From: Fibrobacter succinogenes subsp. succinogenes S85
Lineage (GTDB): Bacteria; Fibrobacterota; Fibrobacteria; Fibrobacterales; Fibrobacteraceae
Assembly (NCBI RefSeq): GCF_000146505.1
Contig: NC_017448.1
Span: 2,130,001-2,162,000, forward strand
Direction: 5' to 3'
DNA length: 32,000 nucleotides
The position numbers and the translations under genes were made by a program. Every line of letters begins with the position of its first letter. The first letter of the stretch is position 1. This document shows, one piece after another, positions 12 through 22,554 of the stretch. The notes below the pieces were generated by a model that was given only the letters and a program-made list of their open reading frames with translations, was not told where the DNA came from and did not search any database.

Positions 12-557
12 TCAAATTATTTGTTTGGAAAATATCGGAAAATGGACAGTTGGACTACGGAGAATTCTTTTCCTGGACCAACCGGTCGCGAACCTCGGTG
101 ATGACCTTTCCAAGGAGATTGCGCCCCTCCAATTTGCAGGGTCGTCGATGTTCGGATTGGTCACGGACAACCCGATACCCCAAATTCTATCACGGGGCGA
201 AGCTTCGACAAACGCGTGCCCGTCGAACTCAGGATCAAGAAGGCGGTTCTTGCAATCTTCCACCTGGCTGTACTTGGCGTAGTTGATATCAAGCATCACC
301 TGATAACGGACGGAATCCCACTTCTCTTTGTCGAACGGGGTCACCTTGCGGCCCAGCCTCTTAGCCTCTTGCGGTGTGCTTGCGACCAAGATCTTTTCTT
401 CCATCACCTTGTCACCGAACAGCACCGCCTTTTCCCACATGAACGCCTGTTCATTGCAAAAGAAGGTGCGTCCCTTGTATTCGAACGGAGCATTCCAGAA
501 GTTAGAAAGCCATTCATGGTAAAAGAATACGTGTTTGTCTGTAACTTTGATAGGCAT
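12..557 (-). CDS. NADAR (DUF1768, YbiA-like) family protein with an apparently frameshifted 3' end; the restored frame would stop at 55-57
   Basis: ORF 12..605 trimmed to the Met at 557, which follows AAAGGAAAAAAT. NADAR-like motifs are present: FFYHEWLSNFW..PF, NEQAFMWEKA, RIWGIG. The canonical family C-terminus GRNLLGKVITEVRDRLVQEKNSP* is readable only in the neighbouring frame after the C4 run at 124-127. Confidence 0.75.
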   Translation of the reverse strand: MPIKVTDKHVFFYHEWLSNFWNAPFEYKGRTFFCNEQAFMWEKAVLFGDKVMEEKILVASTPQEAKRLGRKVTPFDKEKWDSVRYQVMLDINYAKYSQVEDCKNRLLDPEFDGHAFVEASPRDRIWGIGLSVTNPNIDDPANWRGAISLERSSPRFATGWSRKRILRSPTVHFPIFSKQII

Positions 558-587
558 ATTTTTTCCTTTGCTAATTGTTGCTTCTAT

Positions 588-616
588 ATTATCGGAGCAA
601 GGCAAGGAAATGTAAA
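588..616 (-). promoter_or_regulatory. sigma70-like promoter upstream of the NADAR gene (TTTACA-N17-GATAAT)
   Basis: Minus strand reads TTTACA (616-611), a 17-nt spacer, GATAAT (593-588), then ATAGAAG. It lies about 30 nt upstream of the ATG at 557. Confidence 0.45.
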
Positions 617-1311: not shown

Positions 1312-1413
1312 TCTTCATTATCTTCTTTATATATACATTATTTGGGTAAAAAAATGAATCCCTCAAAAATCCATCCATAAAAGGGAGCTGTAGATACAAT
1401 AAACCCACCCCTA

Positions 1414-1442
1414 TATATCGGTAAAGGAGTGGGATGTGTAAA
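1414..1442 (-). promoter_or_regulatory. sigma70-like promoter (TTTACA-N17-GATATA) for the DUF285 gene 656..1279
   Basis: Minus strand reads TTTACA (1442-1437), the 17-nt spacer CATCCCACTCCTTTACC, then GATATA (1419-1414). It shares an identical 16-mer with the element at 5529-5544. Confidence 0.45.
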
Positions 1443-1475: not shown

Positions 1476-3338
1476 TTACTGTGCAATATCGAGACTCATC
1501 TCGTTCACATCACAATCTACTTGTATTTTACCCAAAATATCATAATCTAAACATGCTATTCTATCACCGTCACCTTGCTTTTCCAATGCCAAAATCAGCC
1601 CATCAAAATTATAGGGCTTGAAGATTTTTCCAACAAGCAATCTAAAATATTTATCTACAAAAGACTGTTCTGCGGACATTCCATCATGAGCCAATCCGGC
1701 AATAGGCTTTATACGCCAAAATGCATATTTTTCGTTTAACAAATCCGAAAATTTTTCACGGAATAAAGCACGTGCTTCACTTTTAAATTTTTCGCACGAA
1801 ACAGAATTCTTAGATACGTAAGATTTTAAAACAAACATGAAATTGATGTTATACACCTGTAAAAAAAGTGTATCTCTATCAAAAAGCCTGTTTGTAAAAT
1901 GCCGATTACGATTTCTCCATAAATCCTGCGAATCTTTTCTAATCAATTTAGCGTTTTTTCCAGTCGTTTCTGTCCTAAAATACGGTTCTTTATATTGTTC
2001 CTTCTCTTTTTCCTTTTTAAATTCAGGAATCTCGCCACGAATAAAGAAATTGGGAACTACGTTATATCCTTCAGTCAGCGGATCTCTATAACGAACACCT
2101 TTATGAACATCACCAGCATGTATTGCAATATTGTCTCTTTCACTCAAGCATTCTCTCTCAACATAATTGCCAGAGAAAAAATACTGTAGAATGTTCTTGG
2201 CGTATGTATATTGTTTTGCTATAGATTTGGGATCCAAATCATGAGCATCTTTATAATATTTACTATCACCAATACACCATATCAAATCATTCTCAGAATC
2301 CGAAGCAAAAAGGGATTTTTCTTTATACAGATGATCAACAATTTTTCCATCTTTGTTATTTTTCAAAGCCTCAATATCTTTACCTTGATCTCCTATAAGG
2401 TCATCAACCATCGCCTCAAATACATTGTTGAATGAATTGACAATCAAATACTCCTTAACCTTTTTGTCTTTAGACTTATAACGAGCCCCCCACCGAAAGA
2501 AAGCCTCCATGATATTGTAAAGCCTAAGAAGCCGATCATCAAAGTATTTATACTTAATACGATGCAGCTCTCGCAAGCCATGCTCGTTTTCTAAAAGCCG
2601 TTCCATTTCATTCGCCCTGAGCGGCTGATAAAATTCATTTTGAGGCATGTCATATCCAAATGTCTCTTGGATATATTTCATTGCTGAAAAATACAAGACT
2701 AATAAGCGATCATCTAAATCAAACACCTTAACTTTATTCACAGGATTTAGATATATCGGAATATCGTCTTGAATAAATGGAGTTTTCTTATTAACAGTAC
2801 GTTGCCAATTTATTTTATGGTTTCCGCAATGTTTATTTTTGGCAATAAAAACAAAAAGCGATTGATTCTTTTTGTAAAACAACTCCATATTGCTTATGAT
2901 ATCAAGCAACGTGGCGTAACGATCGTTTTCCTTAAAATCTCGAGATTCCTTTTGAACGGGAGTCTTAACTCCAGTATTTCCTCCACCCTGTTTTTTATAC
3001 TTATCTATGGCCGAATAAAGCCAAACAGACAACGAAGCTAAAAAACGACGTTGGTCTTGATTTATAGAATCTTTTTTTTCTATATCGCCGAAAATATCTT
3101 TGCCATCTTTATCAATCTTTTCCCCAAAAGCATTCGTTTCATTTTCAACAAACACCTTAGGCAAAACAAAGACAGGTTGGCTATTGTAAAAACAATAACC
3201 AACTCCTTCTATCTTTATTTCACTGCTATCTTTTTTTGTATTAAAACCGCATTCACTTTGTTTTTTTGATTCGTCAAAGCCAATAACGTTTTGCAAAAAA
3301 CTCGAAGCATATGGAAATTCTTCAAAAAGGAATATCAT
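1476..3338 (-). CDS. LlaJI-R2 / McrC-like PD-(D/E)xK restriction endonuclease subunit
   Basis: 620-aa ORF starting 3 nt after the stop of the McrB-like gene. It contains the nuclease-type motif WCIGDSKYYKD (about 2250-2282, the D-x-K-Y-Y pattern of McrC/LlaJI). Size and position match the partner subunit of McrB-type GTPases. The sequence is very AT-rich. Confidence 0.7.
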   Translation of the reverse strand: MIFLFEEFPYASSFLQNVIGFDESKKQSECGFNTKKDSSEIKIEGVGYCFYNSQPVFVLPKVFVENETNAFGEKIDKDGKDIFGDIEKKDSINQDQRRFLASLSVWLYSAIDKYKKQGGGNTGVKTPVQKESRDFKENDRYATLLDIISNMELFYKKNQSLFVFIAKNKHCGNHKINWQRTVNKKTPFIQDDIPIYLNPVNKVKVFDLDDRLLVLYFSAMKYIQETFGYDMPQNEFYQPLRANEMERLLENEHGLRELHRIKYKYFDDRLLRLYNIMEAFFRWGARYKSKDKKVKEYLIVNSFNNVFEAMVDDLIGDQGKDIEALKNNKDGKIVDHLYKEKSLFASDSENDLIWCIGDSKYYKDAHDLDPKSIAKQYTYAKNILQYFFSGNYVERECLSERDNIAIHAGDVHKGVRYRDPLTEGYNVVPNFFIRGEIPEFKKEKEKEQYKEPYFRTETTGKNAKLIRKDSQDLWRNRNRHFTNRLFDRDTLFLQVYNINFMFVLKSYVSKNSVSCEKFKSEARALFREKFSDLLNEKYAFWRIKPIAGLAHDGMSAEQSFVDKYFRLLVGKIFKPYNFDGLILALEKQGDGDRIACLDYDILGKIQVDCDVNEMSLDIAQ

Positions 3339-3341
3339 GCT

Positions 3342-4976
3342 CTAAACTTGCCCTTCATCACCGCCATCATTATTACCTTCAGCAAGGGCTTCTGCAGCAG
3401 CGGCAGCATTAGGTGCTACTTGAATTGCAGGGCCAATAGAAGGGACTCCTAAGTTTTGCATAATTTTATCTACAAGAGCTTGTTGTGCAGGAACATCTTT
3501 TTCAAAAAGCGTTTGGAAAGTTACTGTTTTAGCATCATCATCAAAATGGAAAACTTTTTTCGCTTCCTCATTTCCATCTTCATCCTTATAAACAGAATCC
3601 CACAAATAGAACAAGACTTTAGAACGGAATTCATCAAACTTAATGGTCCGTCCCCCATCTTTAGGCTTTATGAAAAATTCGCCCATTTGCTTATCTTCGC
3701 TCTTGGTCACCGAATAGACGTTTTCATTAATCTTTGTCAAGAATGTCAGCCAATTATATTTTCGAGGACCTACTTCTATGACAAAATTAGCTTCGCGGTG
3801 ATTATAATTTATTGGTACATAATTCCAATCAAAACGACGCTTAAAAGCACTATCCATCGGGAATAACGATTGGTCGCTCGTGTTCATTGTTGCAAGGATA
3901 TTTAAATTGGGGGGCAACATAATTTTACAATCTTCAAGATGGTACTCTAAAACATATTTATCAAAAACACCCTCGCGGGCATGACTTAGGGAATCCTTAA
4001 TATATTCTGCAAAATCATAATCTGCATCTATAGAATATTCTGAAATGCCATTCGGTGCACGATCTAATAATTGAAAAATATCACCGAAAATTTGAGCACA
4101 ATTACCACGATTAATTTCTTCAATAATAAGATAGACATTATCATCCACCTCATTTTCAACACCATCCGCGGCTTGTTCACGATCAATTTTCGCTTCAAGA
4201 TATTTTACCCATGCCGTAACATAGGCTTTTGCAAATACTTGCGGAACAAACGAATAAGTTATTGAACCATCACCACTTCTTTTCGGCTTGTACGCACCAA
4301 CAAATTGCGCATAATCATAATCAGGATGAAATGTTGTACGAAACTTTCGATCTTCTGGAATTTTTTCCAATCCATACAACTGTTGATTATTATCTACAAA
4401 CAAACCTTTTTCAATTTTATGAGATTTACCTGTACCAGGAGCTCCAAAAAAAATTTTTTGCAAGCATCTCTCGGAGATTTGAGCATTTCCAGCGCCTTCT
4501 CCCTCACCATTAGCATGATTCTCTATTTGATCTGCTTCATTTTCGCGACGCACTGCATTTTGATCAATTGAATCCAATACCAAATTTCCATCCGGATATT
4601 TTCTTACAGAAATTCCATACGGAGCAAAAATGCTATTAAAGACCTCCAAATCCCTATCTGTAGAGCCAACTTGACTCGTCAAATAATAAGTTATCCCATC
4701 CTTATTAAACGTAGGAGTACGAAGCCAACGTTTTATGCGCCCAGAATCTACGTCTTCTATAGTACGCGGAGCAAAAATCGCAAAAACATATCTAGCAAAA
4801 CCACCGTTTATATAGTGAACGCTTTTAAATGGCCGATTTACACCATCTTCTCCCGTAATAGAACTATTTTTTTCATGCATAAACGGCCAAATACATTCAA
4901 ACTGGTCAGTTTCATACATATACTTTATTGCTGCTATCCAAAAATCCTTAACTCTACGACCTCTATAAATCGGCAT
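3342..4976 (-). CDS. McrB-family AAA+ GTPase (LlaJI-R1-like) with an unassigned N-terminal domain
   Basis: ORF 3342..5087 trimmed to MPIYRGRR at 4976, preceded by AGGAGAATGTT. It has Walker A GAPGTGKS (4422-4445), the McrB signature TTFHPDYDYAQFVGAYKP, Walker B/NTPase LIIEEINRGNCAQIFGDIFQLLDR, and NLNILATMNTSDQSLFPMDSAFKRRFDW. Confidence 0.88.
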   Translation of the reverse strand: MPIYRGRRVKDFWIAAIKYMYETDQFECIWPFMHEKNSSITGEDGVNRPFKSVHYINGGFARYVFAIFAPRTIEDVDSGRIKRWLRTPTFNKDGITYYLTSQVGSTDRDLEVFNSIFAPYGISVRKYPDGNLVLDSIDQNAVRRENEADQIENHANGEGEGAGNAQISERCLQKIFFGAPGTGKSHKIEKGLFVDNNQQLYGLEKIPEDRKFRTTFHPDYDYAQFVGAYKPKRSGDGSITYSFVPQVFAKAYVTAWVKYLEAKIDREQAADGVENEVDDNVYLIIEEINRGNCAQIFGDIFQLLDRAPNGISEYSIDADYDFAEYIKDSLSHAREGVFDKYVLEYHLEDCKIMLPPNLNILATMNTSDQSLFPMDSAFKRRFDWNYVPINYNHREANFVIEVGPRKYNWLTFLTKINENVYSVTKSEDKQMGEFFIKPKDGGRTIKFDEFRSKVLFYLWDSVYKDEDGNEEAKKVFHFDDDAKTVTFQTLFEKDVPAQQALVDKIMQNLGVPSIGPAIQVAPNAAAAAEALAEGNNDGGDEGQV

Positions 4977-5056: not shown

Positions 5057-5471
5057 TTAACAAGAGATAGCGGTGCAATTCCACCACGATCTCGGAATTC
5101 TCGCTCCATTCCTAACTTTTTTAAGTTTACCAAAAAAAGACCCATAACGAAAACATGTGGCAACAAGATCTTTAAAATCTGAACATTTCGACAAATAACT
5201 CATTGCAGCTCTTATAAATCCATTCTTCAAGTAGGCTTTTCGATGATGCAGTTCCACCCATTTATCCGAGTTATGATAAAACTCGCTCATTTTATCCGTT
5301 ATTTCAGCTTCTTTGTACAAATCTTAGAAGCATTTCCATGACCAAAATCAGGCAAATTTAAATACTCCGCCAGATATTTTATCGCCAGAAAAAAGACCTG
5401 GCCTTACCACTTTGAATTCCAGGCGTTTCACAAAATGGGACAAATTTTTGTTCAAATGTATTGAAATCCAT
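5057..5471 (-). pseudogene. small ORF of unknown function (about 138 aa if restored) broken across three reading frames
   Basis: Frame A is MDFNTFEQKFVPFCETPGIQSGKARSFF (start 5471 after AAAGGAGAAAAA). It continues plausibly as LAIKYLAEYLNLPDFGHGNASKI in a second frame after the T6 run (5389-5394). It then continues as LYKEAEITDKMSEFYHNSDKWVELHHRKAYLKNGFIRAAMSYL... in a third frame (ORF 5057..5320). Confidence 0.4.
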
Positions 5472-5532
5472 TTTTTCTCCTTTGTTGATTATCTTAAACG
5501 TTTTTGAACCGAATATAAATATTCCATTCCTA

Positions 5533-5561
5533 TATATCGGTAAAACTATGGGGATTGTAAA
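5533..5561 (-). promoter_or_regulatory. sigma70-like promoter (TTTACA-N17-GATATA) ahead of the broken ORF and restriction pair
   Basis: Minus strand reads TTTACA (5561-5556), the 17-nt spacer ATCCCCATAGTTTTACC, then GATATA (5538-5533). It is paralogous to the element at 1414-1442. Confidence 0.45.
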
Positions 5562-5569
5562 AGATCTTA

Positions 5570-5578
5570 CCCCCCCCC
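5570..5578 (-). repeat. G9 homopolymer (C9 on the plus strand) between the sigma-like gene stop and the -35 box
   Basis: Nine consecutive C at 5570-5578. The tract is 8 nt upstream of the -35 hexamer at 5556-5561 and 9 nt downstream of the stop at 5588-5590. Confidence 0.9.
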
Positions 5579-5587
5579 ACGCAAGCA

Positions 5588-6280
5588 TTACGAATAGCGG
5601 TTACCCAAATACAATTTTTGAATACAATTCCGTGCCTCATCTTGAGCGGAGAGGAAATCCGCAAATTCTTTTTCCAGACCATTTTCTTCGGCGATAAAGC
5701 GAATCTTCTTGAAATTTGTATTAATCATCTGACGTGAAATTCCCATAATCTTTGCCATGTCGGTCTGGCTGACATAGCCAAGCTCGTCAAACGTCGCTAC
5801 ATACTTTTTAAAGAATGCTCGAAGCCTTTCATTTCCACTAAGACATTTTTCAATGGAGTTCACGATTTCCGTCATATCATCATCTTGATCTCGGAACTCA
5901 TAACTATCATAATTCTCACAATAAGAGTTCCTCATCGACATCTCGGTATTAAACGACTTCTCATCCTTAAACGCATACTTGTTCTTCATCGCGAAATACG
6001 CAAGAAACGGCACGCTATAATTGGAATCATAAGTTTCGGCAGCCTTAGCCAAGTTAATATAAGAACTGCCTAAACGGTAACTCCAGAGTTTTTCGGAATT
6101 CAAAAAGTCCTCAGAAAAATCCGGACGAATTTTATAATACTGGTTAAGGGTGACTTTCTTGATAAAATCCACATGCCGGATCCACAGTTCCGACAGAGCG
6201 TCAAAATTGCCATTCTGCGTCATGTTCACAAGTTGAACATCGTCAAAATGAGCGTAACTTTCGTTAATTGTATTTACCAT
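5588..6280 (-). CDS. sigma-70-family-like transcription factor (region-2-like N-terminus, region-4-like HTH)
   Basis: ORF 5588..6325 trimmed to MVNTINESY at 6280, preceded by TAAGGAGAAAAAAT. The N-terminal part reads DDVQLV..NGNFDALSELWIRHVDFIKKV ... YDSNYSVPFLAYFAMKNKYAFKD. The C-terminal HTH reads SQTDMAKIMGISRQMINTNFKKIR. The assignment is by pattern only. Confidence 0.5.
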   Translation of the reverse strand: MVNTINESYAHFDDVQLVNMTQNGNFDALSELWIRHVDFIKKVTLNQYYKIRPDFSEDFLNSEKLWSYRLGSSYINLAKAAETYDSNYSVPFLAYFAMKNKYAFKDEKSFNTEMSMRNSYCENYDSYEFRDQDDDMTEIVNSIEKCLSGNERLRAFFKKYVATFDELGYVSQTDMAKIMGISRQMINTNFKKIRFIAEENGLEKEFADFLSAQDEARNCIQKLYLGNRYS

Positions 6281-18381: not shown

Positions 18382-19886
18382 TTTCGCCAGCCTTCCATAA
18401 TCTTGAGGCAGTCCGCGAGGAGTTCTGCACTGCGTTCCTTGCCTTCGGTTTCCACGTAGCAGCGGAATTCCGGAGCGTTTCCACTCGGACGCAAGTGGAT
18501 GATGTCGCCAGAATCGAATTCCATGCGGTAGCCATCGACTTCGTTCAACGAAACAATCTTGCCCTGGAACGTCTTGTCCTTTGCAAACTTGGAGGGCTTT
18601 GCTGCGAGAGCGCCAAACAGCTTTTCGCCGAGATTCTTTTCGCGGATTTCAGCGAGCTTTGCCTTCGACTTTTCGGTCGGGAATTCCTTGAGGCGGTCGC
18701 TCACGGTAAAGCGCTTCGGCAACTTGCGGAGCAAATCCACAACGCACATGCGTTCCTTGCGGACCATTACCATCACAGCAATCATCGGGAGGAGGGCGTC
18801 ACGTGTCGGGAGGGCCTTGAGTGTGCGGCCATCGAGCGTCAAATCCGTCTCGAGCAAGAAACCGCCATTGGCTTCGTAACCTGCAACCGTGAGGCTCTTG
18901 TCATTTGCATCGACCAGGCTTTCCATGCCGGCAATCACATACGGGCTACCAATGCGCGTACGGCAAATCTTTTCAAAGCTACCGGACTTTTCAAGCGAAG
19001 TGTTGCAACTCACCGGAGTTGCAATGCGCTTGATGCCAAGAGACTGTGCGGCCAAAATACCAAGCACGTCGCCACGGAGCCACATGCCCACATCATCAGC
19101 CAAAAGCGGGCGGTCAGAATCGCCGTCGGTGCTGAACACGGCATCCACGTAATCCTTGTGCGTAAATTCACGAGCGAGTTCTTCATCTTCCTTGCGGATA
19201 GCTTCGGTATCGACCGGAACAAACACATCGCTACGGCCAAACGGCTTGACTGTCGCACCGAGGCTTTCGAGAACCTTCACCACGATGTCGCGGCCCACAG
19301 CGGAATGCTGGTAAACGCCAATCGTGAGTCCATGCAATGCATCGCTACCGAAAAAGTCCGGGTAACGCTTGCAATAATTCGTTTCGGCTTCCGCTTCGAC
19401 CGCCGGGAGTTCAGGCGCAGCCTTCAGCATGCCCTTGTCGTCAAAAAGCGCTTCGTCGAAATCGACCGACTGCGAAACAATTCCCTGTTCGTCGGCCTTC
19501 GTGATTTCGCCATTCGGGTGGTTAAACTTGATACCGTTGCGGTCAGCCGGAATGTGGCTACCCGTCACCATGATGGTCGGCAAATGCTTGTCGATGCCGT
19601 ACATCGCAATCGCGGGGCTCGGGATGCGACCGCAGTAAATCACCTTCCAGTTTGCATCGGCACCAGCCTGCATGAGCGACTTCAAGATGCGTTCCGTACT
19701 CGGACGCAAGTCGCCCGCAATCGCAATCGTGCGTTCGCACTTGTAAGACGCTTCGCAGTACTTGATAAAGGAACGCGCGTACACATAGCACACACGGTCG
19801 GTCATAGCGCTCACGAGACCGCGAGCACCGCTCGTACCAAACGCCACCCCGGACTGTTTCATAACATCTTGCATCGCAACGGACAT
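18378..19886 (-). CDS. alpha-D-phosphohexomutase family protein (phosphoglucomutase/phosphomannomutase)
   Basis: 502 aa with RBS AGAGG. The active-site loop reads VTGSHIPADRNGIKF and the metal-site region reads FSTDGDSDRP. Confidence 0.85.
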   Translation of the reverse strand: MSVAMQDVMKQSGVAFGTSGARGLVSAMTDRVCYVYARSFIKYCEASYKCERTIAIAGDLRPSTERILKSLMQAGADANWKVIYCGRIPSPAIAMYGIDKHLPTIMVTGSHIPADRNGIKFNHPNGEITKADEQGIVSQSVDFDEALFDDKGMLKAAPELPAVEAEAETNYCKRYPDFFGSDALHGLTIGVYQHSAVGRDIVVKVLESLGATVKPFGRSDVFVPVDTEAIRKEDEELAREFTHKDYVDAVFSTDGDSDRPLLADDVGMWLRGDVLGILAAQSLGIKRIATPVSCNTSLEKSGSFEKICRTRIGSPYVIAGMESLVDANDKSLTVAGYEANGGFLLETDLTLDGRTLKALPTRDALLPMIAVMVMVRKERMCVVDLLRKLPKRFTVSDRLKEFPTEKSKAKLAEIREKNLGEKLFGALAAKPSKFAKDKTFQGKIVSLNEVDGYRMEFDSGDIIHLRPSGNAPEFRCYVETEGKERSAELLADCLKIMEGWRN

Positions 19887-19982
19887 ATTAAACCTCTGTT
19901 TAGTAGGCGATAGGAAGTAGACAATAAGAAGTCTCTAAAACCGCCAAATGATTTACAATGGACAAGATAGAAAAATATGTTT

Positions 19983-20963
19983 TTAAGATATTTCCAACGC
20001 CCTTGCTCTATCGTAAATACATTCCTTATACTTAGCCTTCGCTTCTTCACTTAAGAAAGACGCGTCTATCATTTCGTTCATTTCATCAAGATGGTTGGTC
20101 ATTTCACGAATAAACCGCTCAGCCCTTTTCTCGACAATGCCGATACGTTTTGCAAATTCCATAAAATCCGGAGCACCATAAAAGCCATTGGCACTAAAGA
20201 AGTCGCTTTCGTAATCCTCTTCATCTGCAAAAAGATCAAGTGCCATTCTTTCATCAGAAGCATGCAACGACGTATTCAACAAATCATATGCGGGAGTCAA
20301 TACAAATACCCCCTCCTTATTTGGAGAGTATATCGAAAAATTCTTGATATGCGCATCGCCGTTACACACAAGATAATTAAACAAAATAATCTTGAAAAAT
20401 TCTTCGGCAGCAACAATATAAGCACTCACATGTTGTTTTATAAGTCCCGCAATTTCTTCGTAACTAATACTTTCGTACTTAAAGTTTGAACCCGCATTTT
20501 GGCTGCACAAGTCCGCAACTTGGGCAAAATCCTCTTGATGAATCCTCGTACCGTCTTTACGGACATCAAACCGTTTTGTTAAATAGGCAAATTCTCCAGA
20601 AGAAAATTCCATCAATGCCGACTCAGCCACATTCATCTTGAAAATCTGTTTTGCCATTTGCATAGTGACATGTTCATTGGCTGGCATATCACGAAATAAG
20701 CGAAACCGCATACTTGTAGCAGGCTTGAGAATATAGGTTCCAGCACGATCGGTAGGCTCCAATTTTTTCCAACCAAATCTTAATGAAAACTTTATCTGCG
20801 CTCCAGATATTGAAATGCGTTTGACTACATTACCTGTACCTTGAGCAATATCAGGAAGTGTAAAATCAAGTTTCGCACTAAATTTATCCTTATTAAAAAT
20901 TTTTCTAGAACAAGTGCGGCAAAAATCATCTTCACATTCCCTAAGACAGCTACGGCAACGCAT
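19983..20963 (-). CDS. hipT: HipT-like Ser/Thr kinase toxin (HipA lacking N-subdomain 1)
   Basis: 326 aa. It has the Gly-rich loop ISISGAQIKFSL, the catalytic motif NGDAHIKNFS, and TPAYDLLNT. The N-terminus reads CRSC..C.....CRTC. Its start overlaps the hipS stop (TAATG). Confidence 0.8.
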   Translation of the reverse strand: MRCRSCLRECEDDFCRTCSRKIFNKDKFSAKLDFTLPDIAQGTGNVVKRISISGAQIKFSLRFGWKKLEPTDRAGTYILKPATSMRFRLFRDMPANEHVTMQMAKQIFKMNVAESALMEFSSGEFAYLTKRFDVRKDGTRIHQEDFAQVADLCSQNAGSNFKYESISYEEIAGLIKQHVSAYIVAAEEFFKIILFNYLVCNGDAHIKNFSIYSPNKEGVFVLTPAYDLLNTSLHASDERMALDLFADEEDYESDFFSANGFYGAPDFMEFAKRIGIVEKRAERFIREMTNHLDEMNEMIDASFLSEEAKAKYKECIYDRARALEIS

Positions 20964-21301
20964 TATCGAGCCTCCTGCACTGTAATATCCCCGATAGATT
21001 CATTTTTACAAAGTGCCAATAAAACCGCAAAATCATCATTGACGTTAATCTTTAGTCGCTTGCAGATATCTGCTCTATTTTCGCCTTCAGGCAAAAGTCC
21101 GCTAAAAAAAGGGAACAAACATTTAGAATAAAAAATCCTTTTCGATTTCGGCAAATTGATAGCAATAGAGGTTCCGTCTTTATCGATATAATCCGCATCA
21201 TAAATAAAGACGAACCGCCTTTTACTAGCAAGAAGAATACCTGCAATTTTTCCGTTCTTGAAAACAAAAGCCTTTCGAATTTTATAATAAATGCTATTCA
21301 T
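20963..21301 (-). CDS. hipS: HipS-like protein (free-standing HipA N-terminal subdomain)
   Basis: 112 aa. KIAGILL...FIYD..Y......INLP......Y....LFPFFSGLLPEGENR....K....NDDFAVLLALCKNESIGDITV matches the HipA N-terminal coupling domain. Confidence 0.8.
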   Translation of the reverse strand: MNSIYYKIRKAFVFKNGKIAGILLASKRRFVFIYDADYIDKDGTSIAINLPKSKRIFYSKCLFPFFSGLLPEGENRADICKRLKINVNDDFAVLLALCKNESIGDITVQEAR

Positions 21302-21542
21302 GGACGACCCGTTCCTTCAAAGTGATAACGAGTCCAAGAACTTGCAAAAGTTCAAAAAGTACTTTAACGCTCGGATTTGCGCGCCCGCTCTCAATACCAT
21401 TAACAGTACGCAGACAGACTCCCGACATTTCAGCAAGATCAGCTTGAGATATATTCAGCTCCTTACGCCTGTCGGCAATCTGCTTGCCCAAAGAAGATAT
21501 TTCCGTCTGACCCATCGGTTTAAACTCCAAATTATGCAACAT
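21294..21542 (-). CDS. hipB: HipB-like XRE-family HTH protein
   Basis: 82 aa. The HTH reads LGKQIADRRKELNISQADLAEMSGVCLRTVNGIESGRANPSV. There is an 8-nt overlap with the hipS start. Confidence 0.8.
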   Translation of the reverse strand: MLHNLEFKPMGQTEISSLGKQIADRRKELNISQADLAEMSGVCLRTVNGIESGRANPSVKVLFELLQVLGLVITLKERVVHE

Positions 21543-21768: not shown

Positions 21769-22554
21769 ATGGATAGAGCACGCCGCCGCAAATTTGGACA
21801 GAACTTTCTTGACGTTGAAACCGCCACCGCCATCGCAGGCGATTTGCCCGCCGAAGCAGGAGAATTCGTCCTTGAGATTGGTCCCGGTCACGGCGCTCTC
21901 ACGGAGCACTTGCTCAACCGCGGGCTAGAACTTACTGCTGTCGAAATCGACGAGCAGTGCGTTGAAGTCTTGAACGAAAAATTCAAGGACTACAAGAACT
22001 TCAACATTGTAAACATTGACTTTTTGAAGTTTGACTTGCAGGCGTTTTTGGATGCGCATGCCAAGCCGTGGGTTACAGGCAACTTACCATACAACGTAAG
22101 TACAGCAATTATCGCAGGGCTTATGCCGCGCTTGCACTTGACCAAAGGCTTTATGGGAATGGTGCAGCTCGAAGTCGCCGAACGCATCTGCGCCGAACCA
22201 TGCTCCAGCAATTACGGGAGCCTTTCCGTACTTGTTTCTGCATTTGCGAACACGCAGATTTTGCGCAAGATCGGGCCGGAACATTTCACGCCAAAGCCGA
22301 ATGTCGATAGCGCCACGATGCTCTTGACACCGCGCGAAGACGCCATCCAGGCGCCCGACGGATTCTTTGACTTTGTGCGTACCGCATTCACGCAAAAGCG
22401 CAAGACGCTTGCGAATTCCTTTGGACGCAATTACGACAAGAAGAAAATCCAGGCGACCATTGAACTTTTGGATTGGCCGACAACCATCCGCGCCGAAGAA
22501 CTCAGCCCCGAGCAGTTCCTGAATTTCTACAAGGCATTTAAAGGTGAAAATTAA
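21769..22554 (+). CDS. rsmA: 16S rRNA (adenine1518/1519-N6)-dimethyltransferase
   Basis: RRRKFGQNFL at the N-terminus, the SAM motif VLEIGPGHGALT, and NLPYNVST. Confidence 0.9.
   Translation: MDRARRRKFGQNFLDVETATAIAGDLPAEAGEFVLEIGPGHGALTEHLLNRGLELTAVEIDEQCVEVLNEKFKDYKNFNIVNIDFLKFDLQAFLDAHAKPWVTGNLPYNVSTAIIAGLMPRLHLTKGFMGMVQLEVAERICAEPCSSNYGSLSVLVSAFANTQILRKIGPEHFTPKPNVDSATMLLTPREDAIQAPDGFFDFVRTAFTQKRKTLANSFGRNYDKKKIQATIELLDWPTTIRAEELSPEQFLNFYKAFKGEN

Follow-up and report, generated by a model that had tools for sequence, protein, structure and literature searches.

Homologs of McrB keep a motor and a nuclease and exchange the N-terminal domains that act as readers (PMC7680126, PMC12707154). 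In McrBC of Escherichia coli K-12, a type IV system that depends on 5-methylcytosine (5mC) or 5-hydroxymethylcytosine (5hmC), the 5mC-binding domain of McrB is MrcB_N (PMC11090510, PMC7680126), in Thermococcus gammatolerans the McrB reader is a YTH domain recognising N6-methyladenine (6mA) (PMC7680126), and the three-gene McrBC homologs LlaI and BsuMI carry their DNA-binding module on a protein of its own (bioRxiv 10.64898/2026.08.31.748284). LlaJI stands out as a methylase-linked, site-specific exception with a B3 domain (PMC7680126, PMC12707154); the N-terminal domain of HpLlaJI.R1 has a B3 fold (PMC7680126), and the prototype LlaJI restricts unmethylated GACGC (PMC1459862). Herein we analyse a two-gene relative of these systems, R1 and R2, in Fibrobacter succinogenes S85, using a stretch of 32,000 nucleotides (contig NC_017448.1, positions 2,130,001 to 2,162,000), which we call the window. 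That the pair is an McrBC-family restriction module we regard as very probable; the fuller statement, that it is a GTP-driven McrBC-type restriction pair that is stand-alone and modification-dependent, we favour only cautiously.

The S85 pair resembles E. coli McrBC in having adjacent genes for a reader-motor protein (a GTP-specific AAA+ protein with the MNxxD signature) and a PD-(D/E)xK nuclease, in the catalytic motif I-x-D-x-K-Y-Y-K, and in having no cognate methylase (none nearby, in the case of S85). It differs in that its N-terminal domain is not MrcB_N/DUF3578, its GTPase domain is distant (E 9e-8) and its R2, at 620 aa against 348 aa for E. coli McrC, has no profile-level similarity to that protein outside the motif. 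With LlaJI (Lactococcus lactis pNP40 and Helicobacter pylori LlaJI; gene order M1-M2-R1-R2) it shares the order of R1 and R2, 31.5% identity over the R1 motor and an R2 of the same Pfam family (RE_LlaJI), but it comes without methylases and its R1 N-terminal domain is unrelated. T. gammatolerans McrBC, with the same modular layout of reader and motor, provides the best solved match to the R1 motor (E 3e-16), whereas no similarity to its YTH reader was detected in the S85 N-terminal domain. LlaI and BsuMI likewise combine an McrB-like motor with an McrC-like nuclease, and their separate module recalls a stand-alone open reading frame (ORF), similar to R1 N-terminal domains, that lies upstream of R1 in a related locus (L019); however, they have methylases and a motor without a fused N-terminal domain, whereas the separate ORF of S85 is frameshifted and its R1 domain is fused. 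The nearest relatives are five-gene operons from Fibrobacter and the rumen, with R2 58-60% identical and the R1 motor ~60% identical to those of S85. Unlike these operons, the S85 locus is without methylase, kinase-like and regulator-like genes and has a different N-terminal domain, and its G+C is 0.34-0.37, compared with 0.45-0.50 for their R2.

Methylase-less pairs of the family are common and the gene is already annotated (R2 is identical in sequence to FSU_1830, which public databases name a LlaJI-family endonuclease), and an earlier, sequence-only reading of the window overstated the novelty of the pair. The only unusual points of the locus are its orphan reader and the fossil of that reader's acquisition.

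The R1 motor and the R2 nuclease

R1 and R2 are two ORFs on the minus strand (Table 1), packed as closely as the sequence-only reading had described, with exactly 3 nt between the stop of one and the start of the other. R1 starts at the ATG at 4976, with AGGAG 6 nt upstream, and ends with the TAG at 3342-3344; its homologs begin at the same MPI residues. The 3-nt spacer, which is also found in two related loci (L015 and L019), indicates that the pair is an operon, probably with translational coupling.

Table 1. Features of the R1-R2 locus in window positions.
Feature	Positions	Strand	Description
R1	3342..4976	-	544-aa McrB-type AAA+ GTPase: orphan N-terminal domain, linker, GTPase core, acidic/Ala-rich tail
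R1 N-terminal domain	4527..4976	-	aa 1 to ~150; rare orphan domain, presumed target-recognition module
R1 GTPase core	3831..4445	-	Walker A (4422-4445) to FKRRF arginine motif (3831-3845); MNTSD signature 3867-3890
R1-R2 spacer	3339..3341	-	3 nt, agc, between R1 stop and R2 start
R2	1476..3338	-	620-aa LlaJI-family PD-(D/E)xK nuclease, FSU_1830
R2 active-site segment (predicted)	2247..2342	-	IVD335HLY ... IGD358SK360YY
Frameshifted remnant ORF	5162..5471	-	~105 aa; homologous to N-terminal domain of other R1 proteins
HTH gene	5588..6280	-	230 aa, C-terminal helix-turn-helix (HTH), sigma-factor-like by eye; no Pfam family
49-nt repeat, copy A	1394..1442	-	just downstream of R2 stop; hairpin then U-rich tail
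49-nt repeat, copy B	5513..5561	-	upstream of the small-ORF remnant
Poly-G tract	5570..5578	-	between HTH gene and restriction cassette

The complete set of McrB motifs previously quoted for R1 is in place: GAPGTGKS (aa 178-185), TTFHPDYDY (214-222), IIEEINRGN..IFGD (284-299), TMNTSDQS (363-370) and FKRRF (378-382); they include intact Walker A and Walker B motifs. R1 passes the Pfam profile AAA_5 (28.8 bits, cut-off 22) and R2 passes RE_LlaJI (PF09563; 38.7 bits, cut-off 23.6, E 9e-10), and both proteins thus fall into the families proposed for them. Against the NCBIfam McrB equivalog, R1 scores 31 bits where the cut-off is 637, which means that it is not an ortholog of E. coli McrB. In PADLOC, R1 was matched by REBASE-derived 'REase_II' models, R2 was matched by no model and no complete system was called.

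The MNTSD signature places R1 in the NxxD clade described by Bell et al. (PMC11090510), and this bears on a different view of the pair, namely that it descends from McrBC but has some role other than DNA restriction, for example targeting RNA in the manner of the CoCoNuT branch, or housekeeping. Bell et al. predict RNA targeting for that one branch of the family (PMC11090510), which is marked by an NxD signature, coiled-coil fusions and extra nucleases, whereas R1 carries the NxxD form; no coiled-coil or RNA-binding domain was found, and a patchily distributed cassette of low G+C behaves like a defence gene. We therefore consider a role outside DNA restriction very improbable.

In R2, the match to RE_LlaJI is limited to aa 155-383 of 620, and the same profile is carried by all but one of the 120 R2 homologs listed. 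The D-S-K-Y-Y motif that the sequence-only reading had pointed out is present as IGDSKYYKD (aa 356-364), and in an alignment of 19 R2 homologs, reaching down to 30% identity, D335, D358, S359 and K360 are invariant, as are many residues of the 240-aa region that follows the Pfam match. Aligned with E. coli McrC using hhalign, IGDSKYYKD falls on IVDAKYYKS (positions 255-263), this 9-residue motif being the only part aligned; the R2 catalytic residues thereby line up with D257 and K259, the catalytic residues of E. coli McrC. A search of PDB with the R2 profile found no McrC chain, there was no match to Pfam DUF2357 (the McrB-binding 'finger'), and a comparison with LlaJI.R2 of pNP40 gave nothing with phmmer and a marginal result with hhalign (17.5% probability). 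The label 'LlaJI-type', as originally given, therefore holds as a profile-level assignment to RE_LlaJI and not as a direct link to the pNP40 protein, since no link to LlaJI.R2 or McrC extends beyond the profile and the motif. Judged by its sequence, R2 belongs to the family as a distant and much longer protein.

Solved McrBC complexes suggest by analogy that R1 would assemble into a hexameric ring of AAA+ GTPase subunits. Its N-terminal domain of ~150 aa would select the DNA target, and R2 would bind to this ring, speed up the hydrolysis of GTP and cleave DNA through a PD-(D/E)xK site made up of D335, D358 and K360. The assembly of this complex, its dependence on GTP and, above all, a dependence on DNA modification are what we infer for the pair; the sequences themselves show the families, the intact motifs, the operon, the lack of a methylase nearby and the modular exchange of the N-terminal domain.

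The orphan N-terminal domain and the relic upstream of R1

Homology between S85 R1 and other R1 proteins starts at ~aa 152, and the first ~150 aa are unrelated to the motor. Such N-terminal domains are hypervariable in the family: 196 R1 proteins fell into 40 sequence clusters, while their motors are ~60% identical among relatives. The largest cluster (27 members) is MrcB_N, fused to motors ~60% identical to that of S85 and often found in the closest R2 clade. The S85 domain belongs to a small one (cluster 8), known from ~10 rumen sequences. An exhaustive phmmer search with this domain against 1.84 billion representative proteins returned one true match plus two spurious repeat proteins, and the five to six full-length relatives, with 36-49% identity in the N-terminal domain, come from rumen-type metagenomes. 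No match was found among Pfam and PDB profiles, and profile comparison gave no similarity to the domains of methylase-linked R1 proteins; a remote profile link leads to cluster 15 (hhalign 77%, E 2e-5).

The domain was also modelled with AlphaFold2. A first model, built on 5 sequences, had a predicted local distance difference test score (pLDDT) of 52 and its Foldseek matches were meaningless. The second, built on 9 sequences with the remote cluster 15 added, reached a pLDDT of 66 and a predicted template modelling score (pTM) of 0.60; it predicts an alpha/beta topology with a helix at residues 9-24, five strands, a helix at 107-120 and two further strands. A Foldseek search of PDB and BFVD with this model gave nothing with a template modelling score (TM) above 0.25. 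With an orphan sequence and a model that has no fold match, the target of the domain is not readable from either.

Just upstream of R1, in the stretch that separates it from the HTH gene, the reading frames of S85 are broken. In L019, which is the closest relative (R1 72% identical), the same stretch holds an intact small ORF of ~105 aa (L019 451-765), and S85 differs from it in lacking one base at each of two places, once within a T-run (~5388-5394 of the window), and a further 33 nt. Over its full length the small ORF is homologous to the fused N-terminal domains of other R1 proteins (P0148 aa 1-102, E 1e-35; P0153, E 1e-13; phmmer), in which a domain of this kind is joined to the same motor, and a similar free-standing copy exists on the opposite strand in L020 (734-1258 (-)). 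A frameshifted ORF whose homologs are R1 N-terminal domains of another type points to a relic of domain replacement. In the simplest reading, the cluster 8 reader, with its own start codon, would have been placed before the motor, leaving the former reader as an orphan that later decayed in S85; alternatively, the small ORF is possibly a spare module. Switching of N-terminal cassettes by inversion was also considered, and was rejected as R1 and the stand-alone N-terminal ORFs are not connected by inverted repeats.

Two imperfect direct copies of a 49-nt repeat bracket the orphan ORF, R1 and R2. They have an exact core of 16 nt in common, CCTATATATCGGTAAA, for which 0 matches are expected by chance, and among 122 loci the repeat was found only in S85 and L019. 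Copy A folds at -18.2 kcal/mol (z -2.4), and its hairpin followed by a U-rich tail makes it a probable terminator. The HTH gene beyond copy B is 91% identical in L019, where it also lies upstream of the closest homologous cassette, and possibly encodes a regulator. The poly-G tract between this gene and the cassette is G9 in the window, G11 in CP001792.1 and G8 in L019, a difference that could reflect either sequencing error or a variable homopolymer.

Taken further, the S85 domain may have an undescribed fold that reads a DNA modification of rumen phages or mobile elements, and the locus may be a snapshot of a change in McrB-type specificity, in which the motor acquired a new reader that brought its own start codon and a P0148-type reader was left behind as the upstream ORF, possibly with loss of an ancestral methylase/kinase module. 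We put this forward as a tentative idea.

Methylase linkage in S85 and in related loci

The sequence-only reading had described the pair as lacking a DNA methyltransferase anywhere in the window, and the sole methyltransferase there is indeed the rRNA dimethylase RsmA (21769-22554). Neither was a methylase pair found just beyond the window in the same operon: the 10 kb past the left edge hold DUF285, NADAR, Macro, VWA-like, radical-SAM and kinase genes and no methylase. Overall, the pair is free of neighbouring DNA methylases for 27 kb on its upstream side and ~11.5 kb on its downstream side. The 230-aa HTH gene was considered as a hidden methylase and rejected, having a weak PADLOC MTase_II match (E 3e-5) as its only sign, no support from Pfam or NCBIfam, no S-adenosylmethionine-binding or (D/N/S)PP(Y/F) motifs, and a C-terminal HTH instead. 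A search of the accessible literature for the methylome or restriction barrier of S85 found nothing useful.

We surveyed ~110 non-redundant loci encoding R2 relatives, drawn from genomes (one for each species), metagenomes, IMG/VR and plasmids. ORFs were called, R1, R2 and 5-methylcytosine (m5C) methylases were marked by phmmer, and adjacency was counted in the loci with enough upstream sequence. The R2 relatives comprise a Fibrobacter group of 16 loci that includes S85 (45% identity or more; grouped at 40% identity) and distant groups at 30-37% identity. One or two m5C methylases lie within 1.3 kb upstream of R1 in 65 of 81 loci of the distant groups, the classical LlaJI layout as seen in pNP40 and a Pedobacter plasmid, compared with none of the 11 assessable loci of the Fibrobacter group. 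The layout is predicted by the N-terminal cluster of R1: in the methylase-linked clusters the methylase is adjacent in 61 of 62 loci, and in clusters 0 (MrcB_N), 1, 4, 5, 6 and 8 it is adjacent in 0 of 21. The rule that emerges is that the N-terminal type of R1, and not the nuclease family, tells methylase-linked (type II-like) from methylase-free (type IV-like) systems. Distant R2 relatives are also encoded by 22 viral or proviral IMG/VR contigs (L100-L121), nearly all with adjacent m5C methylases, which indicates that LlaJI-type restriction-modification (R-M) cassettes travel on phage-like elements.

Within the S85 type, R1 with a cluster 8 domain and R2 occur together in four contexts (L001/L019, L015, L018 and L126), always at low G+C (0.36) and mostly with the 3-nt spacing, and they are the only genes that these contexts have in common. 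S85 and L019 share an HTH gene and DUF285/NADAR genes; in L015 a second LlaJI-family nuclease gene precedes the pair, and Fib_succ_major and SbcCD genes follow it; L126 has an ADP-ribosylglycohydrolase gene upstream, and L018 a DUF285 gene downstream.

We prefer the stand-alone, modification-dependent view of the pair because of the local lack of a methylase, the behaviour of R1-R2 as a cassette and the census rule that ties domain type to methylase linkage; the frequent presence of the 5mC-reading MrcB_N domain in the closest R2 clade lends it further comparative support. With no methylase in cis and a cassette of two genes, we infer that the N-terminal domain reads something absent from host DNA, which would most likely be a modified base, and the pair would then act as a type IV-like, modification-dependent defence.

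The same data bear on the possibility that the pair is instead a LlaJI-like (type II-like) enzyme blocked by modification, with a reader that binds an unmodified sequence and a cognate methylase encoded at an unlinked site ('separated' R-M). Prototype LlaJI does restrict unmethylated DNA (PMC1459862), the adjacent methylases of the 65 of 81 distant relatives point the same way, as do the methylases adjoining the remote relatives of the S85 domain, and Ershova et al. both argue that LlaJI-like pairs carrying a type IV annotation in fact belong to type II and list, for two strains of F. succinogenes, a separated type II R-M system whose endonuclease is solitary (PMC3488263). Set against this are the methylase-free 27 kb upstream and 11.5 kb downstream in S85, the tightness with which linked N-terminal types keep their methylase within ~1.3 kb of R1 (61 of 62), the presence of the cassette in four contexts with no methylase in the visible flanks, and the dissimilarity of the S85 domain to those of methylase-linked R1 proteins. 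On balance, a separated R-M system seems unlikely.

Several observations weigh against the modification-dependent view that we prefer. In cluster 8, the S85 locus is the only one with enough upstream sequence for the census. Three of the close relatives are tight five-gene operons (L010 3909-12040, L011 2752-11884 and L013 3649-12040), in which an m5C methylase, a protein with HATPase_c_3 and HATPase_c domains, a response-regulator-like protein, R1 with MrcB_N and R2 follow one another; as MrcB_N relatives thus sit in operons headed by an m5C methylase, the Fibrobacter clade is not simply methylase-free. The sole remote relatives of the S85 domain, those of cluster 15, immediately follow genes for an m5C methylase and a MutH-like nuclease, and also come after a methylase-kinase-regulator module. 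None of the known readers MrcB_N, YTH, EVE and SRA matched the S85 domain by sequence, and no known reader matched the model of pLDDT 66 among the folds searched. Lastly, what links R2 to McrC is the 9-residue motif, and what links it to LlaJI.R2 is the Pfam profile.

Because several of the nearest relatives lie in operons with methylase and kinase/regulator-like genes, the S85 locus may be a reduced derivative. One form of this idea is that the pair has lost the upstream module and is a remnant of an operon of the type m5C methylase-GHKL/histidine-kinase-like-response-regulator-like-R1-R2, and is itself inactive, decaying or conditionally active. The larger operon is present in the close relatives L010, L011, L013 and L125, with a shorter form in L123, and the orphaned ORF upstream of S85 R1 corresponds to the N-terminal domain of P0148, an R1 that lies in such an operon; the frameshifts in that ORF and the failure of PADLOC to find a complete system or to match R2 with any model are further points in its favour. 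However, neither S85 ORF is truncated, none of the catalytic motifs is damaged, the pair is kept as a unit with the 3-nt spacing in several strains, and methylase-less forms in which an Xre-type gene precedes R1 and R2 are common in the clade (L009, L012, L020 and L022). We judge this reading, a remnant that is inactive, decaying or only conditionally active, to be rather improbable.

If the pair is an active McrBC-type enzyme, it would put a concrete obstacle in the way of methylated DNA entering S85, a cellulolytic model organism that has been hard to manipulate genetically, and would therefore be a candidate for deletion or evasion. The locus leaves the established picture of McrBC systems, with a conserved motor and nuclease and swappable readers, unchanged, and adds to it one more orphan domain that is a candidate reader, along with a visible trace of how one reader replaced another.

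Gene neighbours and base composition

The organisation of the relatives varies further around the shared R1 and R2. In L123 the order is methylase, HATPase_c_3/Ymh, R1, Fic and R2. In L124 and L125 a methylase-kinase(-regulator) module is followed by a second m5C methylase and a MutH-like nuclease and then by R1 and R2 (L125 175-12097); this second methylase and the 480-aa nuclease with a MutH domain, which is presumably Sau3AI-like, occupy L124 5748-8538 and L125 5770-8560. L021 and L028 have a methylase plus HATPase_c_3, HNH or AIPR genes upstream, and in L009, L012, L020 and L022 an Xre-type HTH gene is the only gene before R1. Methylase-associated and two-component-associated McrBC systems are mentioned by Bell et al. 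2024, who deferred their analysis (PMC11090510). In the Fibrobacter relatives a 5mC-reading domain shares an operon with an m5C methylase. Some relatives have a gene between R1 and R2, coding for either SLFN_AlbA_2 with a winged HTH or Fic/DOC with an HTH (L009 5081-6052, L011 8770-9882 and L123 11422-12402). The LlaJI-family nuclease gene of L015 (2-781; RE_LlaJI, 51 bits) ends ~220 nt upstream of an S85-type R1, which suggests tandem McrBC-like systems.

Genes for the reversal of ADP-ribosylation (NADAR, Macro and ADP-ribosylglycohydrolase) adjoin the cassettes at several loci (window 12-605 (-), L001 12782-13285 and 16938-17981, and L126 3-494). The locus maps to ~1.675-1.697 Mb of CP001792.1, the sole differences between that sequence and the window being two homopolymer indels. 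In the NADAR ORF of the window (12-605 (-)), position 127 reads G4 in one S85 assembly and G5 in the other, which alters its predicted length.

The G+C of R2 is 0.339 and that of R1 0.372, compared with 0.473 for window 10200-32000 and 0.41-0.44 for the flanking DUF285 genes. The islet of low G+C described by the sequence-only reading is thus real, while its estimate of roughly half the G+C of the core genes was too low, the actual values being ~0.72-0.79 of the background. The islet also lies within an array of DUF285 paralogs, as had been said, with paralogs on both flanks. The array members (656-1450, 6527-7291, 7282-9363 and 9495-10199 (-)) have an internal 72-nt repeat periodicity; the restriction islet breaks the array, and a DUF285 gene is also present downstream of the homologous cassette in L018. 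Rfam families and tRNA genes were sought across the window and none were found. A second patch of low G+C (0.39-0.44, ~19500-21500) holds a toxin-like gene for a kinase with a HipA_C domain at 19983-20963 (-).

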